Origin: a virus
Strand: one strand, 5' to 3'
Virus record (IMG/VR): IMGVR_UViG_3300045988_031699
Length of the DNA: 41,983 nt
Positions 5,508 through 14,626 of the stretch are shown here, in pieces. Every line of letters starts with the position of its first letter. Within the stretch, counting starts at the first letter, position 1. The position numbers and the translations under genes were made by a program. The notes below the pieces were generated by a model. It saw nothing but the letters and a program-made list of their open reading frames with translations. It was not told where the DNA came from and did not search any database.

Positions 5508-5549
5508 AAAATCCCCTGCCGGTGGTGCCACACCAGCAAGGGATAAAGA

Positions 5550-5575
5550 GCCGTCAACACAAAAAAGTTGACGGC
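5550..5575 (+). terminator. Hairpin between HTH gene and integrase (weak terminator/attenuator candidate)
   Basis: GCCGTCAAC-N8-GTTGACGGC (9-bp stem) followed by ATTATTAT. A second imperfect hairpin lies just upstream at about 5512-5544. Confidence 0.4.
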
Positions 5576-5608
5576 ATTATTATAGCACATACAAAAAGGA
5601 GCCGCAAT

Positions 5609-6694
5609 ATGAAAAGGACAAATACCGCAAAATGGATTGAAAGCGCCGGGCGTTGGCAAATCAACGTGCAGAAGGACGGAGTGCGCAAGACGTTTACCAG
5701 CGCCAAGCCGGGCCGCACAGGCCAGAGGGAAGCTAACAAAAAAGCAGATGAATGGCTTGACATAGGCGTAAAGACGGAACGGATTAAGGTTTCTGACGCA
5801 TGGGAACAGTTGCTACAGCAGAAAAAACTTGTGTCTGATGCAGAATACAAAAATATGGCATCGTTCGGACGCTCCCATTTGCTGCCAGCCATCGGGATCA
5901 AGTCAGTAAAAGCCGTTACGGAACAGGATTTCCAAAAAATTATAGATTATGCGTTTCGCCATCCACAGGGGAACAGCAAAGAGCCCTTATCCAAAAAGAC
6001 ATTACAAAACTATGCAAGCTACTGCAAGCAGTTTGCGAATTTTTGCCGAAAATCGAAATGGACAACGCTTGAGCTTGAGGAGCTACAGATTCCGGCAGCG
6101 TCTAGAAAAAAAGGAAAGAACGTGCTGACAGTTGAAGCGCTCAACACGCTGCTAAAAGTAGATACGACCATCATGCGCGGAAAATCTGTGCATGATGAAT
6201 ACATAAATTATTATAGGTTTCAGGTGCTAACAGGCATGCGCCCCGGTGAAATGCGGGGGCTGCGATGGGAAGACGTTGACGGGAATCTGTGCAGACTGAA
6301 GCAGGCAATCAATGCGCACGGTCAAATCACGCAGGGAAAAAACGAAAACGCATTGCGCACGGTAGTGCTATCCAGACGAGCAGTGGACGTGCTGGAAGCT
6401 CAGAAAGCCGTGACTGGGAAGCAGACGTACATCTTCCCCATGGCATCCATGCACACCTACTACCACCGATGGCAGCGCTATCAGCGCTCTAATGACATGC
6501 CGGAGCTGAGCCTTTACGAACTGCGCCACACGTTTGTGAGTATCGCGAAGGAGTTGCCGACTGGCGAATTAAAGCAGCTAGTCGGGCATAGCGAGGATAT
6601 GGACACATACGGCACATACTCTCACTACATCGCTGGAGATGACGAACGGACAGCACAAAACTTACAAGAAATCTTTGATAGATTGGTGGACTAA
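5609..6694 (+). CDS. int: Tyrosine recombinase / phage integrase
   Basis: ATG 5609 behind AAAAAGGAG. Catalytic-type motifs GMRPGEMRGLRWEDV, ELRHTF, LVGHS and YGTYSHY. Adjacent to the attP-like site. Confidence 0.9.
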   Translation: MKRTNTAKWIESAGRWQINVQKDGVRKTFTSAKPGRTGQREANKKADEWLDIGVKTERIKVSDAWEQLLQQKKLVSDAEYKNMASFGRSHLLPAIGIKSVKAVTEQDFQKIIDYAFRHPQGNSKEPLSKKTLQNYASYCKQFANFCRKSKWTTLELEELQIPAASRKKGKNVLTVEALNTLLKVDTTIMRGKSVHDEYINYYRFQVLTGMRPGEMRGLRWEDVDGNLCRLKQAINAHGQITQGKNENALRTVVLSRRAVDVLEAQKAVTGKQTYIFPMASMHTYYHRWQRYQRSNDMPELSLYELRHTFVSIAKELPTGELKQLVGHSEDMDTYGTYSHYIAGDDERTAQNLQEIFDRLVD

Positions 6695-6820: not shown

Positions 6821-6844
6821 GTTCGAGTCCTGTCACCTCGACCA
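6821..6844 (+). other. attP core candidate: 3' end of a tRNA gene (T-loop, T-stem 3' strand, acceptor 3' strand, CCA)
   Basis: GTTCGAGTCCTGTCACCTCGACCA gives G-TTCGAGT-CCTGT-CACCTCG-A-CCA. The sequence 5' of it cannot pair as a T-stem or acceptor, so only the 3' tRNA part is present. Confidence 0.55.
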
Positions 6845-6850
6845 CAACAA

Positions 6851-6889
6851 ATGCCGTAGATTCGTTTAAATCTACGGCATTTTCTTTTT
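6851..6889 (+). terminator. Rho-independent terminator after the tRNA fragment
   Basis: ATGCCGTAGAT-N8-ATCTACGGCAT (11-bp stem) followed by TTTCTTTTT. Confidence 0.65.
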
Positions 6890-6916: not shown

Positions 6917-7054
6917 CTATTTTCTCTGCAAACTGTGTACCAAATCATTATACACATCCGGACGTGCTTCTTTCAGCGCATCCATAAACTCATCCAGCAC
7001 ACGCCACACTCGCCCGGTATCGGCCTTTTTTACAATCTCCAAAAATTCACTCAT
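6917..7054 (-). CDS. Cargo gene H: 45-aa protein paralogous to the C-terminus of gene G
   Basis: Not in the ORF track (<60 aa). ATG 7054 overlaps the gene G stop. MSEFLEIVKKADTGRVWRVLDEFMDALKEARPDVYNDLVHSLQRK resembles ...ALNVLDELMSALYVANPKVYNGVMRKLERL. Confidence 0.4.
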   Translation of the reverse strand: MSEFLEIVKKADTGRVWRVLDEFMDALKEARPDVYNDLVHSLQRK

Positions 7055-7400
7055 CCTGTAAACGCTCCAATTTCCGCATTACGCCATTATAAACTTTAGG
7101 ATTTGCTACATACAAGGCCGACATAAGCTCATCCAGCACGTTCAGCGCTGCTGTGATGTCTACGTTTGACACGGCCCGCAAAAAGTCACTGCCACCAACA
7201 GCAGCCCTTGTAGGCGGCTCTGCCGCTTCGTAGTAGCGCACAGGCTCTTGCAGTTCTGCTTTCTGCGGAGAATGGGACGCATCTGCAAGACGCTGATTTT
7301 TCACAACATACAGCGCTGCCAAATTTTTAACTCTGGTCATGGTGAGTTCGCTGCTTTCGATTTCGGCTATAGCGCCGTCAATCTCTCGCACGTCAACCAT
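7047..7400 (-). CDS. Cargo gene G: hypothetical 117-aa protein
   Basis: Clean ORF in tight array with F and H. No recognised family. Confidence 0.6.
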   Translation of the reverse strand: MVDVREIDGAIAEIESSELTMTRVKNLAALYVVKNQRLADASHSPQKAELQEPVRYYEAAEPPTRAAVGGSDFLRAVSNVDITAALNVLDELMSALYVANPKVYNGVMRKLERLQDE

Positions 7401-7417
7401 AGCCCTTACACCTCACT

Positions 7418-7831
7418 TTAACCGTTTCGCATCGTGTCAATGCAGCGCTGGATGACTTCCCTATCTTTGCTGTCAGCCCCGCGCATAATATCTTCCATGC
7501 GGGAAATCAGTGAATCGCGCCCATCGTCCATGCTGTAGTGCCCGCGCACATAATGCGAACCGCGCCGCGCATAGCTGCTGCCGCGTCCATAATTGCCGCG
7601 CATATTGGCGCTCCAATCACCATCGCGGCTGTAATCCTCATCGCGGCTGTAATCCTCATCGCGGCTGTAACCGTCATCTTCCAGCATGACAATTTTGTCG
7701 ATGTTTTTGATAGTGTCAGTCAGCTTGTGAACAGTTTCCAAGTCACCGGCAGACATTTCACCCTTCTTTCCGATTTCGTCCAGTTCTGCGCACAGCATGT
7801 CTTTCAAGTCATACAAAACTTTTTTGCTCAT
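7418..7831 (-). CDS. Cargo gene F: hypothetical 137-aa protein with acidic YSRDED repeat and R/G/Y/S-rich segment
   Basis: Helical N-terminus, (DGYSRD/EDYSRD/EDYSRD) from an 18-bp x3 repeat at 7622-7675, then NMRGNYGRGSSYARRGSHYVRGHYS. Confidence 0.6.
   Translation of the reverse strand: MSKKVLYDLKDMLCAELDEIGKKGEMSAGDLETVHKLTDTIKNIDKIVMLEDDGYSRDEDYSRDEDYSRDGDWSANMRGNYGRGSSYARRGSHYVRGHYSMDDGRDSLISRMEDIMRGADSKDREVIQRCIDTMRNG
7622..7675 (-). repeat. 18-bp x3 in-frame tandem repeat inside gene F
   Basis: atcgcggctgtaatcctc at 7622-7639 and 7640-7657; variant atcgcggctgtaaccgtc at 7658-7675. Confidence 0.9.
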
Positions 7832-7843
7832 GGTTTACTCCTT

Positions 7844-8266
7844 TCAGCTCACTCTCTCGACCACAAAGTTTGCGTTCGCAAACAAAACGGTTTGTGTGCT
7901 TGTATTTTCGGCGGCAACGGTCAGGCAGCAGCCGCGCGGAACTTCAACAAAAGACGTCACATAGATATTAAAGAAGTTTTCTACTGCTGCCGGTGTCACG
8001 GTTGCAGTCGCACTGTTCAGCGGTTCGCCGTTGATAGCAAGTGCCGCAGTAATAGCTCCCACTGTGCCGCCAGTAGGGATAGCAACGTTTGCACCAAAGC
8101 CCACTTTGAAACGAGCTTTGCACTGGTTCGTAATGCCGCGCAGCGTAACAATACCGGCGTCCTCTCTGTGTACGACACAGCCCTTGCCCGCTACTGCCGT
8201 TTCCGTCAGCGGCACGTTCTGGCCTGCTGCCACGCTCACGGTATTGGCATTTGTAAATTCAGCCAT
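7844..8266 (-). CDS. Cargo gene E: hypothetical 140-aa A/V/T/G-rich, probably all-beta protein
   Basis: ATG 8266 behind AAAGGA. Low charge with alternating hydrophobic pattern (…VTLRGITNQCKARFKVGFGANVAIPTGGTVGAITAALAING…). Follows an internal terminator. Confidence 0.6.
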   Translation of the reverse strand: MAEFTNANTVSVAAGQNVPLTETAVAGKGCVVHREDAGIVTLRGITNQCKARFKVGFGANVAIPTGGTVGAITAALAINGEPLNSATATVTPAAVENFFNIYVTSFVEVPRGCCLTVAAENTSTQTVLFANANFVVERVS

Positions 8267-8281
8267 AAAATCATTCCTTTC

Positions 8282-8316
8282 AAAAAAAGATAGTGGCGGG
8301 ACGATTGCCCCGCCAC
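8282..8316 (-). terminator. Intrinsic terminator between cargo genes D and E
   Basis: Minus strand: GTGGCGGG-N8-CCCGCCAC, then TATCTTTTTTTG. Confidence 0.5.
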
Positions 8317-8379
8317 ATTTTGCACTATCGGCACGGGGCCGAACATGTCAGATATTCAGACAAGTTGCCGTATTTGGTT

Positions 8380-9156
8380 TTAGCAGGCGCAGCCGTTGCA
8401 GGTGCCGCAATTCCCATACTGATACGGTGCGGGAACAGGGAAAGCAGGAACAGGGCGGGGGTTGTAGTAAGCAAGCTGCCCGCTCATATAGGCTTTCAGC
8501 GTTTCATTCTGCGCAGCCTGACTTGCGGCAAGCTGTGCGGCGAAAATCTGCTGGTTCTGCTCGGCAATCTTGGCATCTTTAGCCTCAATGCGCTGCGCCG
8601 TCAGTGCGTCAAGCACAGCGCGGGCGTTCGCGTTCTGGTTTTCGATGATGTCCCGAGTGCCGTTCTGGATAGTCTGGCGCGTGTCGCAAGCCTGCGTAGC
8701 GAGGTTGTAGTTTACGCCCTGGATAGCCTCGCGGGTCTCGCAGCAGCAATTCGCCTGCTGCATCTGCATGGCATTTAGCTGCTGCATAAATGCGGCCTGC
8801 TGGTTTGCGCGGCTGATTTCAGCCGACATAAAGCCCTGCTGCATAGCGTTCTGCACACCGTTGACAAGCTGTGCCTGAGCATAGAAGCCATCGCACAGGC
8901 CGTTGTTCACGACGTCGATTTTGCGCTCAACGTTGGCAAAATCACTGGTGAGGATGTATCCATCAACTGCGCCGGTGCTGCCGTTGCCGCCAAAGCCGTT
9001 GTTGCCCCAGTTGCCGCCCCAGCCGCAGAAAACGAAGAGGAAGAGAATAATAATCCACCACGCACCATCGCCGCCAAAGCCCCAGCCGTTGCCATTGCCC
9101 GTATTTGCGGGCTGAACAGGCATTGTCATAACAGTGCCGTCCGAAGAAAGACTCAT
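8380..9156 (-). CDS. Cargo gene D: membrane-anchored Gly/Asn/Trp- and Gln/Asn-rich protein with Cys-rich C-terminus
   Basis: ATG 9156 behind AAAGGAG. GNGNGWGFGGDGAWWIIILFLFVFCGWGGNWGNNGFGGNG (one TM), a long Q/N/A-rich region with a CCC motif, and the end ...PAPYQYGNCGTCNGCAC. Confidence 0.65.
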   Translation of the reverse strand: MSLSSDGTVMTMPVQPANTGNGNGWGFGGDGAWWIIILFLFVFCGWGGNWGNNGFGGNGSTGAVDGYILTSDFANVERKIDVVNNGLCDGFYAQAQLVNGVQNAMQQGFMSAEISRANQQAAFMQQLNAMQMQQANCCCETREAIQGVNYNLATQACDTRQTIQNGTRDIIENQNANARAVLDALTAQRIEAKDAKIAEQNQQIFAAQLAASQAAQNETLKAYMSGQLAYYNPRPVPAFPVPAPYQYGNCGTCNGCAC

Positions 9157-9210
9157 GTTTAACTCCTTTCAAAAGTTGAATGTATTGTTCACCGTGCGCA
9201 CGGTTTGAAC

Positions 9211-9429
9211 CTATTTTAAAAAGCTCTGGAACTGCTGCGCCATTGCTTGTAGCTGGTTTAGCTGCTGCTGGCTCATTTTGCCAGATTGCAGCAGCTTTTC
9301 CACCTCTTGTTTGGGGTCGCCCTGAAAATTTGCCCGGAACTGCTGAAACTGCTGCATCATCTGTTGAAACTGCCCCATCGGGCCGGGCATACGCCCGCCA
9401 CCTAAAACGTTAAACAGTGGATTTGGCAT
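9211..9429 (-). CDS. Cargo gene C: 72-aa Gln-rich protein
   Basis: ATG 9429 behind GAAGGAGAG. MGQFQQMMQQFQQFRANFQG...QQQLNQLQAMAQQFQSFLK. Overlaps the gene B end by 20 nt. Confidence 0.5.
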   Translation of the reverse strand: MPNPLFNVLGGGRMPGPMGQFQQMMQQFQQFRANFQGDPKQEVEKLLQSGKMSQQQLNQLQAMAQQFQSFLK

Positions 9430-9874
9430 TTTCGCTCTCCTTCTTCTTTGTCAGCGGTTTATCTGCCTCCAGCGCGTCAAAGCGGGCCGCCAGCGCGTCA
9501 AACTCTGCACGGGTGACAAACTCTCCGGCTTGTGCTTGCACGGTCTGTGTGGGCTGTTTCTGTGCCGCTGTGCGCTCTGCATAATCGAAGATGCGCAACG
9601 GCTGCGGCATCCCGCTTGCGTCCACTGTTTTGATATAGAACGAGCTTTTCTCGCTATCCATCAAAAGTACGCTGTTTCCTGGCGCACAAAGATAACTTTT
9701 TGCCGCTTCTTCTCCTTGCACCCAAATAATAGGAGCAGTTTGCTGTGCAGTCTGTTGCTGCTGCGGATACGCTGCCTGTCGAAGCTGTGCAAGCTGGTCA
9801 GGCATTGCAGTGGGCTGCCCCATCGGGTAATATCCCGGTGCAAATCCGGGCTGATATGGTACGCCAAACGCCAT
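9410..9874 (-). CDS. Cargo gene B: P/Q/Y-rich N-terminus, compact core, coiled-coil tail (hypothetical)
   Basis: ATG 9874 (track start 9880 is TTG) behind AAAGGA. MAFGVPYQPGFAPGYYPMGQP...IIWVQGEEAAKSYLCAPGNSVLLMDSEKSSFYIKTVDASGMPQPLRIFDY... Confidence 0.6.
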   Translation of the reverse strand: MAFGVPYQPGFAPGYYPMGQPTAMPDQLAQLRQAAYPQQQQTAQQTAPIIWVQGEEAAKSYLCAPGNSVLLMDSEKSSFYIKTVDASGMPQPLRIFDYAERTAAQKQPTQTVQAQAGEFVTRAEFDALAARFDALEADKPLTKKKESENAKSTV

Positions 9875-9880
9875 AGTCAA

Positions 9881-10258
9881 TCATCCTTTCTGCCAGTAGT
9901 ACAGCGGCACTTCATCTCCGCTGTCCCATGTATCCAACCAGTCCCCATTTTCCACGCACACAACATGCGTAGCCATTGCCAAAATATACGTGCCATCTGG
10001 GTGCTCCGCCGCAAAATCTGCCACTGTGTAGCAGTCCGGGCAGCTGTTCGGAATTGCCGAACGGTTCCACCCACATCGGCGCAGATAACTACCCCAGACA
10101 TAGTTTGCAGACGGCATATCATGCAGTTCAAATCCTGCCAGCACCAGCGCCGCATATACAGCCGCCCATGATTGATGCGTTGCGGCTGCAATGGCTCTGA
10201 CGGTACAATCGCCGACGCGCTTTTCTTCCGGGTTTAGGTTGATTTGCTTGTATGCCAT
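9881..10258 (-). CDS. Cargo gene A: small Cys/His protein, possibly papain-fold peptidase/amidase-like (tentative)
   Basis: ATG 10258 behind AAAGGAGCGG (track start 10291). N-terminal GDCTVRAIA and later ATHVVCVENGDWLDTWDSG suggest a Cys...His pair. First gene after the lysis terminators. Confidence 0.5.
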   Translation of the reverse strand: MAYKQINLNPEEKRVGDCTVRAIAAATHQSWAAVYAALVLAGFELHDMPSANYVWGSYLRRCGWNRSAIPNSCPDCYTVADFAAEHPDGTYILAMATHVVCVENGDWLDTWDSGDEVPLYYWQKG

Positions 10259-10291: not shown

Positions 10292-10340
10292 AAAGACGGC
10301 ACAACGTAGGCCAGTAAAGTGCCAACATTGTGCCGTCTTT
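10292..10340 (-). terminator. Long-loop hairpin (second, weaker terminator/processing-site candidate)
   Basis: AAAGACGGCACA-N25-TGTGCCGTCTTT (12-bp stem). On the minus strand it is followed by TTGTGTAC. Confidence 0.35.
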
Positions 10341-10345
10341 GGGAC

Positions 10346-10386
10346 AAAATAAAAAAGGGCGCGGCCACAAAAGCAGCCGCGCCCTT
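10346..10386 (-). terminator. Strong rho-independent terminator ending the late/lysis operon
   Basis: Minus strand: AAGGGCGCGGC-N10-GCCGCGCCCTT (11-bp GC-rich stem) running into TTTTTTATTTT. Confidence 0.75.
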
Positions 10387-10390
10387 TAAA

Positions 10391-10555
10391 TTAGCCTATT
10401 TTGTTTTTGATGCTGCGAACGCGCCGTTTTACCGTGCGCTCGCTGCAATTCAGTTCTGCCGCAATATCAGCATTGCGCCAGCCGCGCCGCCGAAGCTGCA
10501 AAACATCCGTTTCTTCATCGGTCAGCAAACCGCCGACAAAATCAAACTTTGGCAT
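10391..10555 (-). CDS. 54-aa LuxR/sigma-70 region-4-type HTH protein
   Basis: Not in the ORF track. ATG 10555, 2 nt after the holin stop. MPKFDFVGGLLTDEETDVLQLRRRGWRNADIAAELNCSERTVKRRVRSIKNKIG. Confidence 0.6.
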   Translation of the reverse strand: MPKFDFVGGLLTDEETDVLQLRRRGWRNADIAAELNCSERTVKRRVRSIKNKIG

Positions 10556-10557
10556 GA

Positions 10558-10776
10558 TTACTCATCCTTCTTGTTCTTGCTTTCGGTCTGTGTGCCAAAA
10601 TAGAAGGCCACAACCATTGTTACAATGGTCATGACCGTGTCAGGCTGTAATTTCTCCCGCAGCGCCAATGCCGCAAACACTGCAACGACAACCAGCGTCA
10701 CAATGGTTTTTACCTTGAAAAGTGCGGCAATGTTTTTCAAAAAATCGCCCATAGATATGCACTCCATTTCAGCCAA
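10558..10776 (-). CDS. Putative holin (two TM segments, charged C-terminus)
   Basis: TMs IVTLVVVAVFAALAL and VMTIVTMVVAFYFG, tail TQTESKNKKDE. Alternative start is ATG 10752 (MGDFLKN) behind GGAG. Lies in the lysis cassette. Confidence 0.55.
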   Translation of the reverse strand: MAEMECISMGDFLKNIAALFKVKTIVTLVVVAVFAALALREKLQPDTVMTIVTMVVAFYFGTQTESKNKKDE

Positions 10777-11137
10777 TCAGATGATTTTGCAAAGCTTCCT
10801 TTGCTTTCTGCATCTGGTCAATGTTGTTCCCATCCAGATTGTGGTCAAGCAGGGCAAGCAATGCCTGCATGGTCACATGCTGCCCCTCGTCCATGCGGTC
10901 AAGCCGCTGTTTATCTTTTTTCAAGAATCCCTCCATGGCGTTCACCCGCTCTTCAAGCTTGGTAATGCGTTTGTCCTGGTCGGTCTTCGGCTTTTTTACT
11001 GCAGTGATTACTTTGCTGATGGCAACACCACCGGCATACAGTCCGGCAGCAGCACCCGCCGCGTAAATTAAAAACGCCCAGGCCTCCGCAAGCGTAAACG
11101 AGAATACATGCTGCATCGGCATCACACCTCCGCCCAT
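10769..11137 (-). CDS. Lysis-associated membrane/coiled-coil protein (holin-like or holin partner)
   Basis: N-terminal TM AWAFLIYAAGAAAGLYAGGVAI followed by a coiled coil (RITKLEERVNAMEGFLKKDKQRLDRMDEG). Overlaps the endolysin stop. Confidence 0.5.
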   Translation of the reverse strand: MGGGVMPMQHVFSFTLAEAWAFLIYAAGAAAGLYAGGVAISKVITAVKKPKTDQDKRITKLEERVNAMEGFLKKDKQRLDRMDEGQHVTMQALLALLDHNLDGNNIDQMQKAKEALQNHLIG

Positions 11138-12399
11138 TCAGATTTGTACAGCCCGGCATCGGTCAGGCCGCGGCTCTGGCACAGCAGGTAAATTGCATCC
11201 GCATCTCCCTGCGTCACCGGCCCGATGGTAATCACTTGTAGCTTCCTTTCAGGCTTGTCCAAAGCGGGCAGGGCCTTTACCAGATGATTCAAATCAACCA
11301 CCTCGGTGATGCCCGGCACGTCGCCCTTTGCGGTCTGGCTGTACTGGTGGATGTATCGCGGCAGCGTCTTGTCGTAGTTGGCGCGGGTGTCGGCCAGCCA
11401 GCCGATGTAATCTTCACACAAATAGGTGTAGTCGATGTTTGCACTTGCGAACGCCGTGAAGGTGTAGATGCCTGCCATAAATCCGTGCGCTTTGGCTCTC
11501 TTACAGAACGCCATTGCAATTGCCGTGCGCTGGTCTTTGGTCAAGTTGTCCGCGCGGCCATCGTGAACGCCGGTCTTGGTTGTGTGTCCCCATTCGCTGT
11601 CGAAGAACAAGGGATAGCCTGTCGGGGCAAGGCTTGCGCAGAAATCAGCTTCCTCGCGGGCTTCGTCCACTGTGATGGCCTGCGAGAAGAAGTAAAAGCC
11701 GAACAGCTTTCCGTTCGCTTTCGCCCCTGCAAGGTTAGCATCGTACTGCTCGTCCTTCATCAGCTTTCCGCTGCCGTATCCGCGATACCCGATGCGAACA
11801 ATGGCACGGTAGGGAACCTTTGCCCAGTCGATGGCGCCCTGATGGTGAGACACATCAATCAGAACTTCCTCGCCGCTGGGCCGTGCAGCGTCTGCGGGTT
11901 TTTCTACAGCGTGCTCACCGGGGCGATAAGTAAACACCTTCCCGCTTGCCGTGGTAAAGTCGCCGTCCAGCCATACCAGCGGGTTGGTGCGGCTGCCGTT
12001 CAGAATGACTTCAAAGTGCAGGTGCGCTCCAAACACATTGCCGGTAGTGCCGCTATAGCCGATGAGGTCGCCCTCTTTGACCTGCTGTCCCAGCTTGACG
12101 CAATATCTGCTCAGGTGTGCGTATCGGGTCTGCATGGGCTTTCCCTTGTAGGGCGCGTGTTTGATTCTCACCATGTTGCCATAGCTCTGCATCCCGGTTT
12201 TTGTATGGCCGTCCCAGTCCTGCATCTGGTCAACTGTGCCATCCTCGGCAGCGTATACCGGCTGCGTGCTGGTATTGCCGATCTGGGTGCGCAGGTCGAT
12301 GGCCCGGTGCAAGCTGCCGTCGTTGTAAAACCATCCTTGTGTGATGATGTGCTGGGCCAGAGGCCACGCCAGCAACACCTCACCGTTTGAGAGTCTCAT
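11122..12399 (-). CDS. Bifunctional endolysin: M23 peptidase plus GH25 muramidase
   Basis: M23 motifs HRAIDL and GAHLHFEV. GH25 signature IDVSHHQGAIDWAKV...RIGYRG. 425 aa with an extra C-terminal domain. Confidence 0.85.
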   Translation of the reverse strand: MRLSNGEVLLAWPLAQHIITQGWFYNDGSLHRAIDLRTQIGNTSTQPVYAAEDGTVDQMQDWDGHTKTGMQSYGNMVRIKHAPYKGKPMQTRYAHLSRYCVKLGQQVKEGDLIGYSGTTGNVFGAHLHFEVILNGSRTNPLVWLDGDFTTASGKVFTYRPGEHAVEKPADAARPSGEEVLIDVSHHQGAIDWAKVPYRAIVRIGYRGYGSGKLMKDEQYDANLAGAKANGKLFGFYFFSQAITVDEAREEADFCASLAPTGYPLFFDSEWGHTTKTGVHDGRADNLTKDQRTAIAMAFCKRAKAHGFMAGIYTFTAFASANIDYTYLCEDYIGWLADTRANYDKTLPRYIHQYSQTAKGDVPGITEVVDLNHLVKALPALDKPERKLQVITIGPVTQGDADAIYLLCQSRGLTDAGLYKSEWAEV

Positions 12400-12670: not shown

Positions 12671-14626
12671 TCAGTTAATGGAAGCAACCGCTGCTTCCAA
12701 ATCCTCAATGTGTTTAATGGGGTCTGCGCGTCCCGTGACAGTCGCGCTGTCGGCATCGGTCAGAATAGTATTCGCACCTGCAAGCGCGGGGATGGGCTGT
12801 GCGCCTGTCGCGGTGAAGGGCACAGGCTCTGTCAGATTGTAGTATACTTGCACAGGACTTCCTGCGGCATACTGGGCGACGAGGTAAGCATTTAAGGCAT
12901 TAGCATCTGGAAAATACTTGCTCATAAGTTTCGCTGTTGTGTAAAGATACTTTCCCCTCAAATTCCCACCAAAAGTATTAGCAGGAAAATGACTACAAGT
13001 TGTATCATAGCTATCGGCTATACCGGGTGCTGAATTTTGTGGTAGATTCCAATATCTATCACGCTGTGTAAACTTGTTGGTTGTCCCGTCCAGCGTCAGC
13101 GTTTTCCTCGTCTCTTTTCCATCTCCCGTCACCGCGTCCACCTCACCGCTATACACGGTTTCAGACATGTTGAGCGTAATCACTTGATTATCCTCCTGCC
13201 TGGTAATCGTCACGCTGTCCCTGCCCTTGATAGGACGAATGTTTGCGTAAGGTGAATAGGCCGTTGCAGTCGCGCCTTTCTCTATCTGCGGTTTTGCCGA
13301 AACATTATCCAGTGTGCCAGAGGCGGCAAAAAACAAGGTGGCATTTTGTATGTCATTCTCTACTGTAAACGTATGTGGCCGTCCAACAGCTTGCGTGGCA
13401 ATCATAGCACCGTCTGCATCTTTATTGAGAATTGATATACGGAAATGTGACATTGCGCTAATTGTGTATGTACCTGCAGGAAGCGAAAATTTATCAGAGT
13501 TGTAGTATGTAGTTCCATTTGCCGTTCCGTTTGCTGTTACGGTGCCATCGGGGGTTATTGTCCACGTCACTCCATAGCTCATGGCTTTTTCTGGCATCCA
13601 TGCAGGATTAAACAGGTTCTTACCGCCACCTTCCGGATACGGTGTCCCGCTGCCCTCCTGCACGGGCTCCCACTTCGCTTTCACGCCAAGCGGATAGCCC
13701 GCCACGGGGTAACACACAACAGGGTTGCCGCTTTCTTCCAGAGGCGGGCAAAACATATCAATGATGTGCTTGCTGCTCCACGGCGCATCCTCGCTCACCG
13801 CCGCATCATCAATCTGTACGCCGTCCTTTCCGGCAGGCCCCTCCGGGCCAACCTCTCCCTGTGGCCCCTGCTCACCGCGCTCACCCTGCGGGCCAGTATC
13901 ACCCTTGGGGCCAACCGGGCCAGTTTCGCCAACAGGCCCCTGCGCGCCGGTATCGCCCTTCTCGCCTTGTACACCCTGAACGCCCTGCTCACCTTGGGGG
14001 CCGCGCTCTCCGGTGTCGCCCTTCTCGCCCTGTGGGCCTCGAGGGCCAGTTGCACCCGTTGCCCCGGTAGGGCCTTGAACTCCCTTTTCTCCTTGCGGCC
14101 CCTGCGGGCCTACGGGGCCTCGCGGGCCAGTATCACCCTTGTCGCCTTTGGCTCCATCTTTGCCGTCAAATTTGCCGTTAGCCGCATCATTTCGCAAGTT
14201 ATCGGCCACGCTCTTTGCTTCCGCGCTGTTCTTTTCTGCGTTAAGCGCAGCCTGCAAAACCTGCGTGGCAAGTGATTCACTGGGTTTAAACGGCTCAGTT
14301 CCACCAACGGGGCCGCGTGTAATCACGTTGTATCCCTGCGTTTTTGTGATGCGCTGCACACCATTGGCAACGCCGCAATACACGATAGTGCCCGTACCCT
14401 CATTGGCGGTTGCTTCGGCAGGCACATCAATCAGGCCGTTTTCCGGCAAACGGATTTCACGGGGTTCTCCCTTCGGCGGGTTAAACGTTGCTGTTACAGC
14501 AAGCCCGCTCCACGTATCGTCAAGTGTCACATGCAGCTGCTCGATACCGTAACTGCCAAAAGTGCCAAGCGATAAGTTGCCGGGTCTAACACTGTATCCT
14601 TTCAGCTGTACTTCATGCAATGCCAT
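12671..14626 (-). CDS. Collagen-like-repeat tail fibre protein
   Basis: 651 aa with 39 uninterrupted G-X-Y triplets (residues 155-271), flanked by a globular N-terminal domain and a ~380-aa C-terminal domain. Lies in the distal tail module. Confidence 0.8.
13814..14164 (-). repeat. Collagen-type (GXY)39 coding repeat
   Basis: [40 protein letters not shown]...[12 protein letters not shown] counted directly from the translation. Confidence 0.9.

Follow-up and report, generated by a model that had tools for sequence, protein, structure and literature searches.

An undescribed gene module between the lysis genes and attP in siphophages of gut Clostridia

The stretch between the lysin gene and the phage attachment site, attP, is a position where temperate phages of Gram-positive bacteria carry moron genes for lysogenic conversion, such as those encoding toxins in prophages of Streptococcus pyogenes and Staphylococcus aureus. 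Phages also encode exclusion proteins, many of which are membrane-anchored, and leader and antitermination RNAs acting in cis are exemplified by HK022 put, EAR and the riboswitch-type attenuators. No described system has the composition of the locus reported here: two of its eight proteins can be assigned a fold, and its RNA element is new to Rfam. The locus is a cassette of eight open reading frames (ORFs), A to H, on the minus strand between positions 6917 and 10258 of a viral genome (IMG/VR record IMGVR_UViG_3300045988_031699). All coordinates refer to the whole stretch of 41,983 nucleotides (nt) that was analysed, hereafter the window.

The cassette and a small helix-turn-helix (HTH) gene upstream of it are best explained as a self-contained accessory module of siphophages of gut Clostridia and not as exchangeable cargo. 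Searches with tblastn and family hidden Markov models (HMMs) recover the order A-B-C-D-E-F-(G) from 83 viral contigs and from most of the 80 genome contigs, which belong to Oscillospiraceae, Lachnospiraceae, Acutalibacteraceae and Christensenellales, and it holds down to about 25-30% identity for D. The position is constant, after a lysin gene and before attP and an integrase, host DNA or early genes, and every related locus that spans the slot downstream of the lysin contains the cassette. In some Lachnospiraceae loci D and E alone were detected with these models, and in a few loci A is placed after D. Identities among close relatives vary independently from gene to gene (for example, B 72% versus 99%), which indicates recombination inside the cassette, yet the genes remain together. 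That A-H might be no system at all, just unrelated small hypothetical ORFs adjacent by descent only, is hardly credible when their order survives across bacterial families and with D down to about 25% identity, when they stay linked despite this recombination, and when they overlap or abut and have conserved control elements of their own; the solitary occurrence of A in Bacillus Tsamsa-like phages, Geobacillus GBK2 and Lak phages is what could be said for it. Linkage, gene overlaps and dedicated control elements together argue that A-H is a system.

The original prediction, made without database searches, had seen here one coherent, undescribed module in the slot between lysin and att. Both points stand: the gene order is shared between viral and genome loci, homologues of A-H are linked and not scattered, and integrated forms and relatives alike place them in that slot. 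Its description of the module as cargo is weakened. The cassette is better conserved than the flanking lysins and integrases, and it is complete in Butyrivibrio phage Ceridwen, which lacks an integrase and whose observed growth is lytic only. Upstream, the lysin varies between M23+GH25, Phage_lysozyme, amidase, PGRP-type and glucosaminidase enzymes; downstream the neighbour is host DNA, early genes or a recombinase gene of the tyrosine or serine type in convergent orientation. A recombinase is the first large downstream ORF in 21 of 59 diverse loci, and further lineages agree.

The products of A to H are 125, 154, 72, 258, 140, 137, 117 and 45 amino acids (aa) long. An independent gene call on L164 (41,981 nt), evidently the same scaffold, yields products identical to those first listed, and all eight ORFs lie on the minus strand where they had been placed. 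Neighbouring genes overlap or are separated by short gaps. The gap between D and E is occupied by a conserved three-hairpin RNA (8286-8367, minus strand), which reads in the order P1, a conserved AUG, P2, a conserved GAUACUG, and a GC-rich terminator hairpin, P3, with its U-run, followed by the ribosome-binding site of E. P3 had been noticed originally as a hairpin with a T-run between D and E, and it is indeed present at 8293-8316. Across an alignment of 21 diverse sequences 97.5% of cells are paired, compensatory changes occur in 16 of 21 pairs as against 8.5 in shuffles, and shifted-register controls pair at only 39-59%. The covariance model (R1) scores 80 bits in the window, where there is a single copy and no second one, and it finds a copy just after D in 46 of 86 loci, one per locus (for example, L106:8737-8822 and L002:8767-8852). 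Rfam has no family over the region, its best score being 24.5 bits against a gathering score of 70. The RNA may act as an attenuator or in antitermination or processing, or it may be a small RNA from the 3' end of the D transcript. Pairing of P2 with P3 as an antiterminator is present in some sequences and absent from others, and hence is not claimed.

Nine of 80 related viral contigs (L008, L018, L021, L025, L030, L047, L048, L066 and L067) stop 40-137 nt past the stop codon of D, in or just after the RNA motif, at the equivalent of about 8255-8340 in the window. These ends are probably assembly breaks at a mosaic junction, a reading prompted by the existence of E as two alleles, with about 80% versus 95-99% identity.

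The other control elements lie upstream of A. A 54-aa HTH protein of the LuxR/GerE type (10391-10555, minus strand) matches Pfam GerE at 2.2e-10, scoring 40.4 bits against a cutoff of 23.5, and is a candidate regulator of the cassette. Its gene starts 2 nt after a holin-like ORF with no terminator between them, and so belongs to the late operon. That operon is closed by an intrinsic terminator at 10354-10387 on the minus strand (15-bp stem with 10 GC pairs, then a U-run), and a second hairpin with a T-run follows at 10292-10340 on the same strand (-31.7 kcal/mol, z = -6.9); the two hairpins that had been predicted upstream of A are thus both real features of the sequence. The interval 10292-10340 also contains GGCAC-type repeats 11-13 nt apart, which were read by eye and failed a strict test for at least three copies; it is a candidate operator or promoter region for A-D. 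In 17 of 103 distinct loci direct repeats 10-13 nt apart, in at least three copies, occur upstream of A, compared with 0.9% of shuffles, an enrichment of about 18-fold. The sequence of the repeats varies from one phage group to another and covaries with the recognition helix of the HTH, GGCAC going with SERTVKRRV and TGGCG(T/C)A with SERTVNRRV, and a TGGC-like core is common to all variants (for example, L167:8820-8860 and L172:7860-7900). A related HTH gene adjoins A in 18 of 46 diverse loci, within 2.5 kilobases (kb) upstream in 16 and just downstream in two. Where 1-2 kb of unrelated DNA is inserted, the repeats remain beside A and the HTH gene beside the lysis genes. Promoters of sporulation type and of sigma-54 type were considered upstream and dropped, being inconsistent between loci by eye.

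D (8380-9156, minus strand; phrog_16490 at 2e-54) is the hallmark protein of the cassette. An invariant N-terminal TMPVxP is followed by a hydrophobic segment flanked by Gly, Asn and Trp, a Q/N-rich helical region in which a CCC motif is invariant, and a Pro- and Cys-rich tail. The compositional features first described, namely the CCC and Cys-rich tail of D, the Q-rich character of C and the YSRDED repeat of F, are all evident in the translations. D contains the only strongly hydrophobic 19-mer of the cassette. None of the eight proteins has a signal peptide, a lipobox or a wall-binding domain, which argues against a classical surface-exposed system, and the suggestion that the cassette acts at the surface is not supported, D alone having a hydrophobic segment. 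A role for D as the i-spanin of a two-component pair was rejected, there being no ORF with a lipobox or signal peptide in the cassette and no outer membrane in the clostridial hosts.

E (7844-8266, minus strand) is a stand-alone jelly-roll of the TNF/C1q/BclA-C kind. Its AlphaFold2 (AF2) model has a mean confidence (pLDDT) of 91.2 and shows 10 strands in a compact antiparallel jelly-roll. Foldseek matches it to ExsFA/BxpB with template-modelling (TM) scores of 0.78-0.79 (7r1m/8d02) and to the C-terminal domain of BclA with 0.71 (1wck), then to F-BclA, and after that to TNF ligands and phage fibre knobs; the probability is 1.0 for ExsFA, BxpB, the BclA C-terminal domain and the TNF ligands. The nearest viral models are stand-alone proteins of 130-145 aa from gut phages, and 'BclA protein' is the name given to some of these. 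E itself matches no Pfam family, BclA_C included, and its translation has no collagen-like GXY repeats; 2 of 25 distant relatives match Pfam BclA_C (PF18573), with a best E value of 1.1e-5. At 50% identity the family forms 902 clusters, of which the top 150 are all short and stand-alone, most of about 140 aa, and never fused to fibres.

The exosporium-like fold raises the idea of a spore-surface module, assembled in the mother cell on the coat or exosporium of the lysogen, with E as an ExsF/BclA-like subunit, a Cys-, Tyr- and Gln-rich matrix and A as a cross-linking or processing enzyme. The lack of signal peptides would suit assembly in the mother-cell cytoplasm, the compositions resemble those of coat proteins, the regulator is a small HTH of GerE type, two relatives of E match BclA_C besides the structural resemblance of E to exosporium proteins, and one cassette-bearing element apparently interrupts sigG in Lachnospira intestinalis. 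Against this, Butyrivibrio fibrisolvens and Vescimonas fastidiosa, both described as non-sporulating, have phages or prophages with the cassette, the fold of E is also frequent at the tips of phage fibres and among C1q/TNF proteins, no sporulation family appeared among 122 relatives scanned, and no sporulation-type promoter was identified. The idea was downgraded because of the non-sporulating hosts and we regard it as very improbable; of the spore-surface phenotypes that had been envisaged for the cassette, the sole remaining link is the fold of E.

The sigG case deserves separate mention. In Lachnospira intestinalis CLA-AA-H89B (L121:5854-6930, NZ_JBBMFS010000001) the element abuts a sigG gene without its first approximately 96 codons, the remainder matching positions 97-257 of the SigG model (E 6e-78) and adjoining a ylmC/ymxH sporulation gene. 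The element looks like an insertion within sigG, and no report of a sigG-intervening element was found in the literature. The case is one of interplay between phages and sporulation genes and says nothing direct about the cassette.

Because folds like that of E are used at the tips of collagen-like and tail fibres, E might instead be a late decoration or fibre-tip subunit, with the other proteins as assembly factors. The presumed tail fibre of the window, a 651-aa protein encoded on the minus strand just upstream of the lysis genes (12671-14626), has collagen triple-helix repeats, and late co-regulation of the cassette with the lysis genes is possible. A virion-associated or morphogenetic role is nonetheless quite unlikely: the structural block does not include the cassette, which is set behind terminators, D has a predicted membrane anchor, the family of E is short and stand-alone with no fibre fusion in its top 150 clusters, and the cassette accompanies unrelated sets of tail and fibre genes. 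The fibre protein of the window has no detectable similarity to E.

A (9881-10258, minus strand; phrog_3754 at 9e-29), a cytoplasmic protein, is probably a papain-fold cysteine hydrolase. C18, H98 and D109 are invariant in 15 diverse and 74 further sequences, and in the AF2 model (pLDDT 94) they sit at the N-terminus of a helix, in a strand and in the next strand, so that Cys, His and Asp follow each other in papain-like order. The best PDB fold is Josephin-2, a weak match (TM 0.46, E 0.27, probability 0.75), and other papain-like deubiquitinases follow at lower rank. No peptidase family profile in Pfam or NCBIfam matches A, nor does any PDB sequence, the C39 domain included. Relatives of A that share 26-41% identity with it stand alone, with no other cassette gene, in Bacillus Tsamsa-like phages, Geobacillus phage GBK2 and Prevotella Lak megaphages, where they sit among small, mostly hypothetical genes (KC481682 9509-9904; KJ159566 26471-26860; MK250016); two records label them 'putative peptidase'.

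B (9410-9874, minus strand; phrog_21718 at 1e-31), with an alternative TTG start at 9880, begins with a head rich in P, Q and Y, continues through a conserved core of about 55 aa and a helical segment, and ends in a K-rich tail; it is syntenic in relatives and has no Pfam match. C (9211-9429, minus strand; phrog_22984 at 3e-21), a Q/M-rich peptide whose gene overlaps the end of B, is encoded by one of the best-conserved genes of the cassette and retains an N-terminal NPLF..LGG motif. In F (7418-7831, minus strand; phrog_28802 at 3.5e-12), which is also syntenic, conserved N- and C-terminal segments flank a low-complexity insert of YSRDED and R-G-Y-S-rich sequence. G (7047-7400, minus strand), syntenic in most loci and without a PHROG or Pfam match, consists of two conserved segments and a variable linker between them. 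H (6917-7054, minus strand) is found in close relatives only and is a paralogue of the C-terminal domain of G; the domain shared by G and H, first noticed by inspection, is recovered by an HMM of G relatives, which matches H at 5e-10.

That none of the eight belongs to a canonical virion, lysis, replication, toxin or defence family, as first supposed, is confirmed by the library scans. Searches of Pfam, NCBIfam, PADLOC and PDB sequences gave nothing for A, B, C, D, F, G and H apart from a marginal PADLOC match of C (0.005), and the PADLOC protein models gave nothing for A, B, D, E, F, G and H. Neither single sequences nor profiles of E, D and A matched any PDB sequence, and PHROGs puts A-F in families without assigned function. 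Among 122 diverse relatives, Pfam, NCBIfam and PHROGs returned only DUF7841, as an extra domain in one relative of G, and noise. No paralogue of a cassette gene was found elsewhere in the window, no deposited phage matched in a DNA search at near identity, and no description of the cassette was found in the literature searched. Among the matches of D, E and A with a source name all are 'hypothetical', except for one E relative called a molybdopterin-binding protein (a JGI label). The families themselves are large, with 7,989 matches among 8,000 scored candidates for D, 5,781 matches for E and 6,424 for A. With thousands of gut metagenome clusters each, D, E and A are thus among the commoner unexplained gene sets of human gut phages.

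Some relatives have unrelated genes inserted in the cassette or at its edge. Between the HTH gene and A there are two opposite-strand ORFs without a Pfam match (L167:7867-8728, L169 and L171), Dulem virus 33 has an endonuclease gene between C and D (L002:7280-7831), and Ceridwen has a 287-aa ORF between E and F (L175:7518-8312).

On the minus strand of the window the order is lysin, DUF7365 protein, holin-like protein, LuxR/GerE-type HTH and then A. The lysin (11122-12399) has Peptidase_M23 and Glyco_hydro_25 domains. The rest of the lysis block (10558-11137) encodes a 122-aa DUF7365 protein with a hydrophobic N-terminus and a coiled-coil region, and the 72-aa holin-like protein (10558-10776), an arrangement that resembles lysis genes of the XhlA/XhlB type. 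At the other end, a hairpin after H (6849-6882; -20.7 kcal/mol, z = -8.8) is terminator-like on the plus strand, and a tyrosine integrase gene (5522-6694) is convergent with the cassette. Between these two lies attP. The window and its integrated form (L165, L167) are identical as far as 6821 and then diverge, which sets the attP core at 6821-6844, exactly where it had been proposed; ARAGORN identifies the same sequence as the 3' end of the host tRNA-Pro(TGG), and three contigs with the integrated form have tRNA-Pro(TGG) after H, with host genes beyond it.

A serious rival reading is a conversion or exclusion module expressed in lysogeny, a membrane complex that would protect the lysogen, for example by blocking the entry of superinfecting DNA, or alter its envelope. 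The slot between lysin and attP becomes the very end of the integrated prophage, two hairpin terminators insulate the cassette from the late operon, a convergent integrase comes next in many lineages, unrelated genes inserted at the same place in relatives suggest an insertion hot spot, and D is predicted to be membrane-anchored, as many exclusion proteins are. On the other side, the cassette is conserved like a core module and is not patchy, no PADLOC family matches it, its seven or eight coupled genes far exceed known exclusion systems, and the linked HTH gene belongs to the late operon. Two cultured systems bear on the question. In the prophage of Vescimonas fastidiosa MM35 the order is holin, amidase, B-C-D-E-F-G and then host genes, all the cassette genes being annotated 'hypothetical protein'. 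In Ceridwen (MN882553), whose cultured host is Butyrivibrio fibrisolvens, a lysin gene, a small ORF and a terminator are followed by A-B-C-D-E, the 287-aa insert, F, G and then early genes, and the annotated stretch after the cassette contains no integrase. The authors who described Ceridwen found no lysogeny genes in it except an XRE repressor and antirepressor pair, saw it grow lytically only and regard it as virulent (PMC7372960); an intact cassette in such a phage also speaks against a function in lysogens. We consider a conversion or exclusion role possible and on balance rather unlikely.

Instead, we tentatively favour a very late, lysis-coupled role for A-H in egress or envelope breakdown, to which we would give a probability of roughly 0.3. 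It is favoured by the association of the cassette with lysis genes and by the fact that nothing is exported: with none of the proteins secreted, a complex would have to function on the cytoplasmic side of the membrane or be released by lysis. From the observations above we infer a direction of regulation, a topology for D and a complex. The HTH protein would be made with the holin and lysin, its gene being at the end of the late operon, and would bind the phased repeats behind the late terminator, thereby switching on A-D. E-H would be transcribed only by polymerases that pass the three-hairpin RNA and its terminator, a conditional read-through. D is predicted to be anchored in the cytoplasmic membrane through its N-terminal segment, with the Q/N- and Cys-rich helical part in the cytoplasm. 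E, presumed to be trimeric, would be the partner of D, the two forming a minimal pair in some Lachnospiraceae loci. A, as a Cys-His-Asp hydrolase, may process or modify a partner; candidate substrates are the invariant N-terminus of D and, in C, the conserved Gly-Gly end. Scaffolding may fall to B, C, F and G/H, as low-complexity or helical subunits. In its fullest form the proposal is a phage machine of a new kind, common in the human gut virome: a post-late operon fired by the HTH of the late operon, encoding a membrane-anchored D stalk and an E trimer matured by A within a low-complexity matrix of B, C, F and G/H, its second half gated by a cis-regulatory RNA of a new class, and serving egress or, once freed by lysis, acting on bacterial surfaces or conceivably on the mammalian host. 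As a whole this elaboration is speculative and we think it unlikely.

Several points weigh against a lysis-coupled role and the regulation proposed with it. A LuxR/GerE-type HTH is not detectable in 28 of the 46 diverse loci, and where it is present it could equally be a repressor. Hexamers resembling a -10 element occur upstream of A in 28% of loci as compared with 19% of shuffles, so that a sigma-A promoter is not established. The fold match of A, with its E value of 0.27, is weak. The two tandem terminators and the att-proximal position suit a unit expressed in lysogeny just as well, and Ceridwen, which keeps its repressor and antirepressor, may be a recent virulent derivative that still has the genes. 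Finally, seven more genes for lysis seem excessive in a phage already equipped with a holin, an XhlA-like protein and a two-domain lysin.

Whatever its role, the cassette is a testable unit, given a cultured phage-host pair (Ceridwen and Butyrivibrio fibrisolvens DSM 3071) and a cultured lysogen (Vescimonas fastidiosa MM35). Once that role is resolved, seven protein families and an RNA family would be annotated together, and it would become clear what temperate phages of Clostridia need beyond the canonical modules. If the cassette is lysis-coupled, the known lysis toolkit of phages of Gram-positive bacteria would be extended; expression in lysogens would instead make it a conversion trait spread very widely among gut commensals.

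Piece by piece, the module can be compared with known systems. Like the papain-fold cysteine peptidases (the C39 double-glycine leader peptidases and the Josephin-type deubiquitinases), A has an invariant Cys18...His98...Asp109, a spacing that resembles Cys17, His96 and Asp112, which we take to be the corresponding residues in the peptidase domain of ComA; unlike the C39 peptidases, A is a free-standing protein of 125 aa with no transporter attached and no Pfam or PDB sequence match. The RNA between D and E shares with cis-acting leader and antitermination RNAs two conserved hairpins and an intrinsic terminator within an operon, together with conserved single-stranded stretches, but it differs from those described in that it matches nothing in Rfam and shows no alternative pairing that would make a convincing antiterminator. 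E shares its fold with ExsFA/BxpB and the C-terminal domain of BclA from the exosporium of the Bacillus cereus group, and is of a size similar to ExsFA. It differs from them in its sequence (about 10-15% identity), in the absence of a collagen-like region and of an N-terminal exosporium-targeting segment, and in being encoded by phages with known hosts that are described as non-sporulating and always paired with D.

D resembles i-spanins and lysis proteins of the XhlA type in its predicted N-terminal anchor, its long helical Q/N-rich region, its conserved cysteines and the location of its gene downstream of lysis genes; it has no sequence similarity to them and no lipoprotein partner, and it belongs to a separate unit behind terminators. 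Together, D and E mimic the layout of the TNF-superfamily ligands, with their type II anchor, stalk and trimeric jelly-roll head, although here the parts are split over two polypeptides and the head has no export signal, so that the likeness is architectural only. As a locus, the cassette is closest to the morons, whose slot it occupies at the prophage edge, insulated by terminators. Unlike morons, it comprises seven or eight coupled genes instead of one or two, has no secretion signals, is conserved across families where morons are patchy, and extends beyond temperate phages to a phage that grows lytically and has no integrase.

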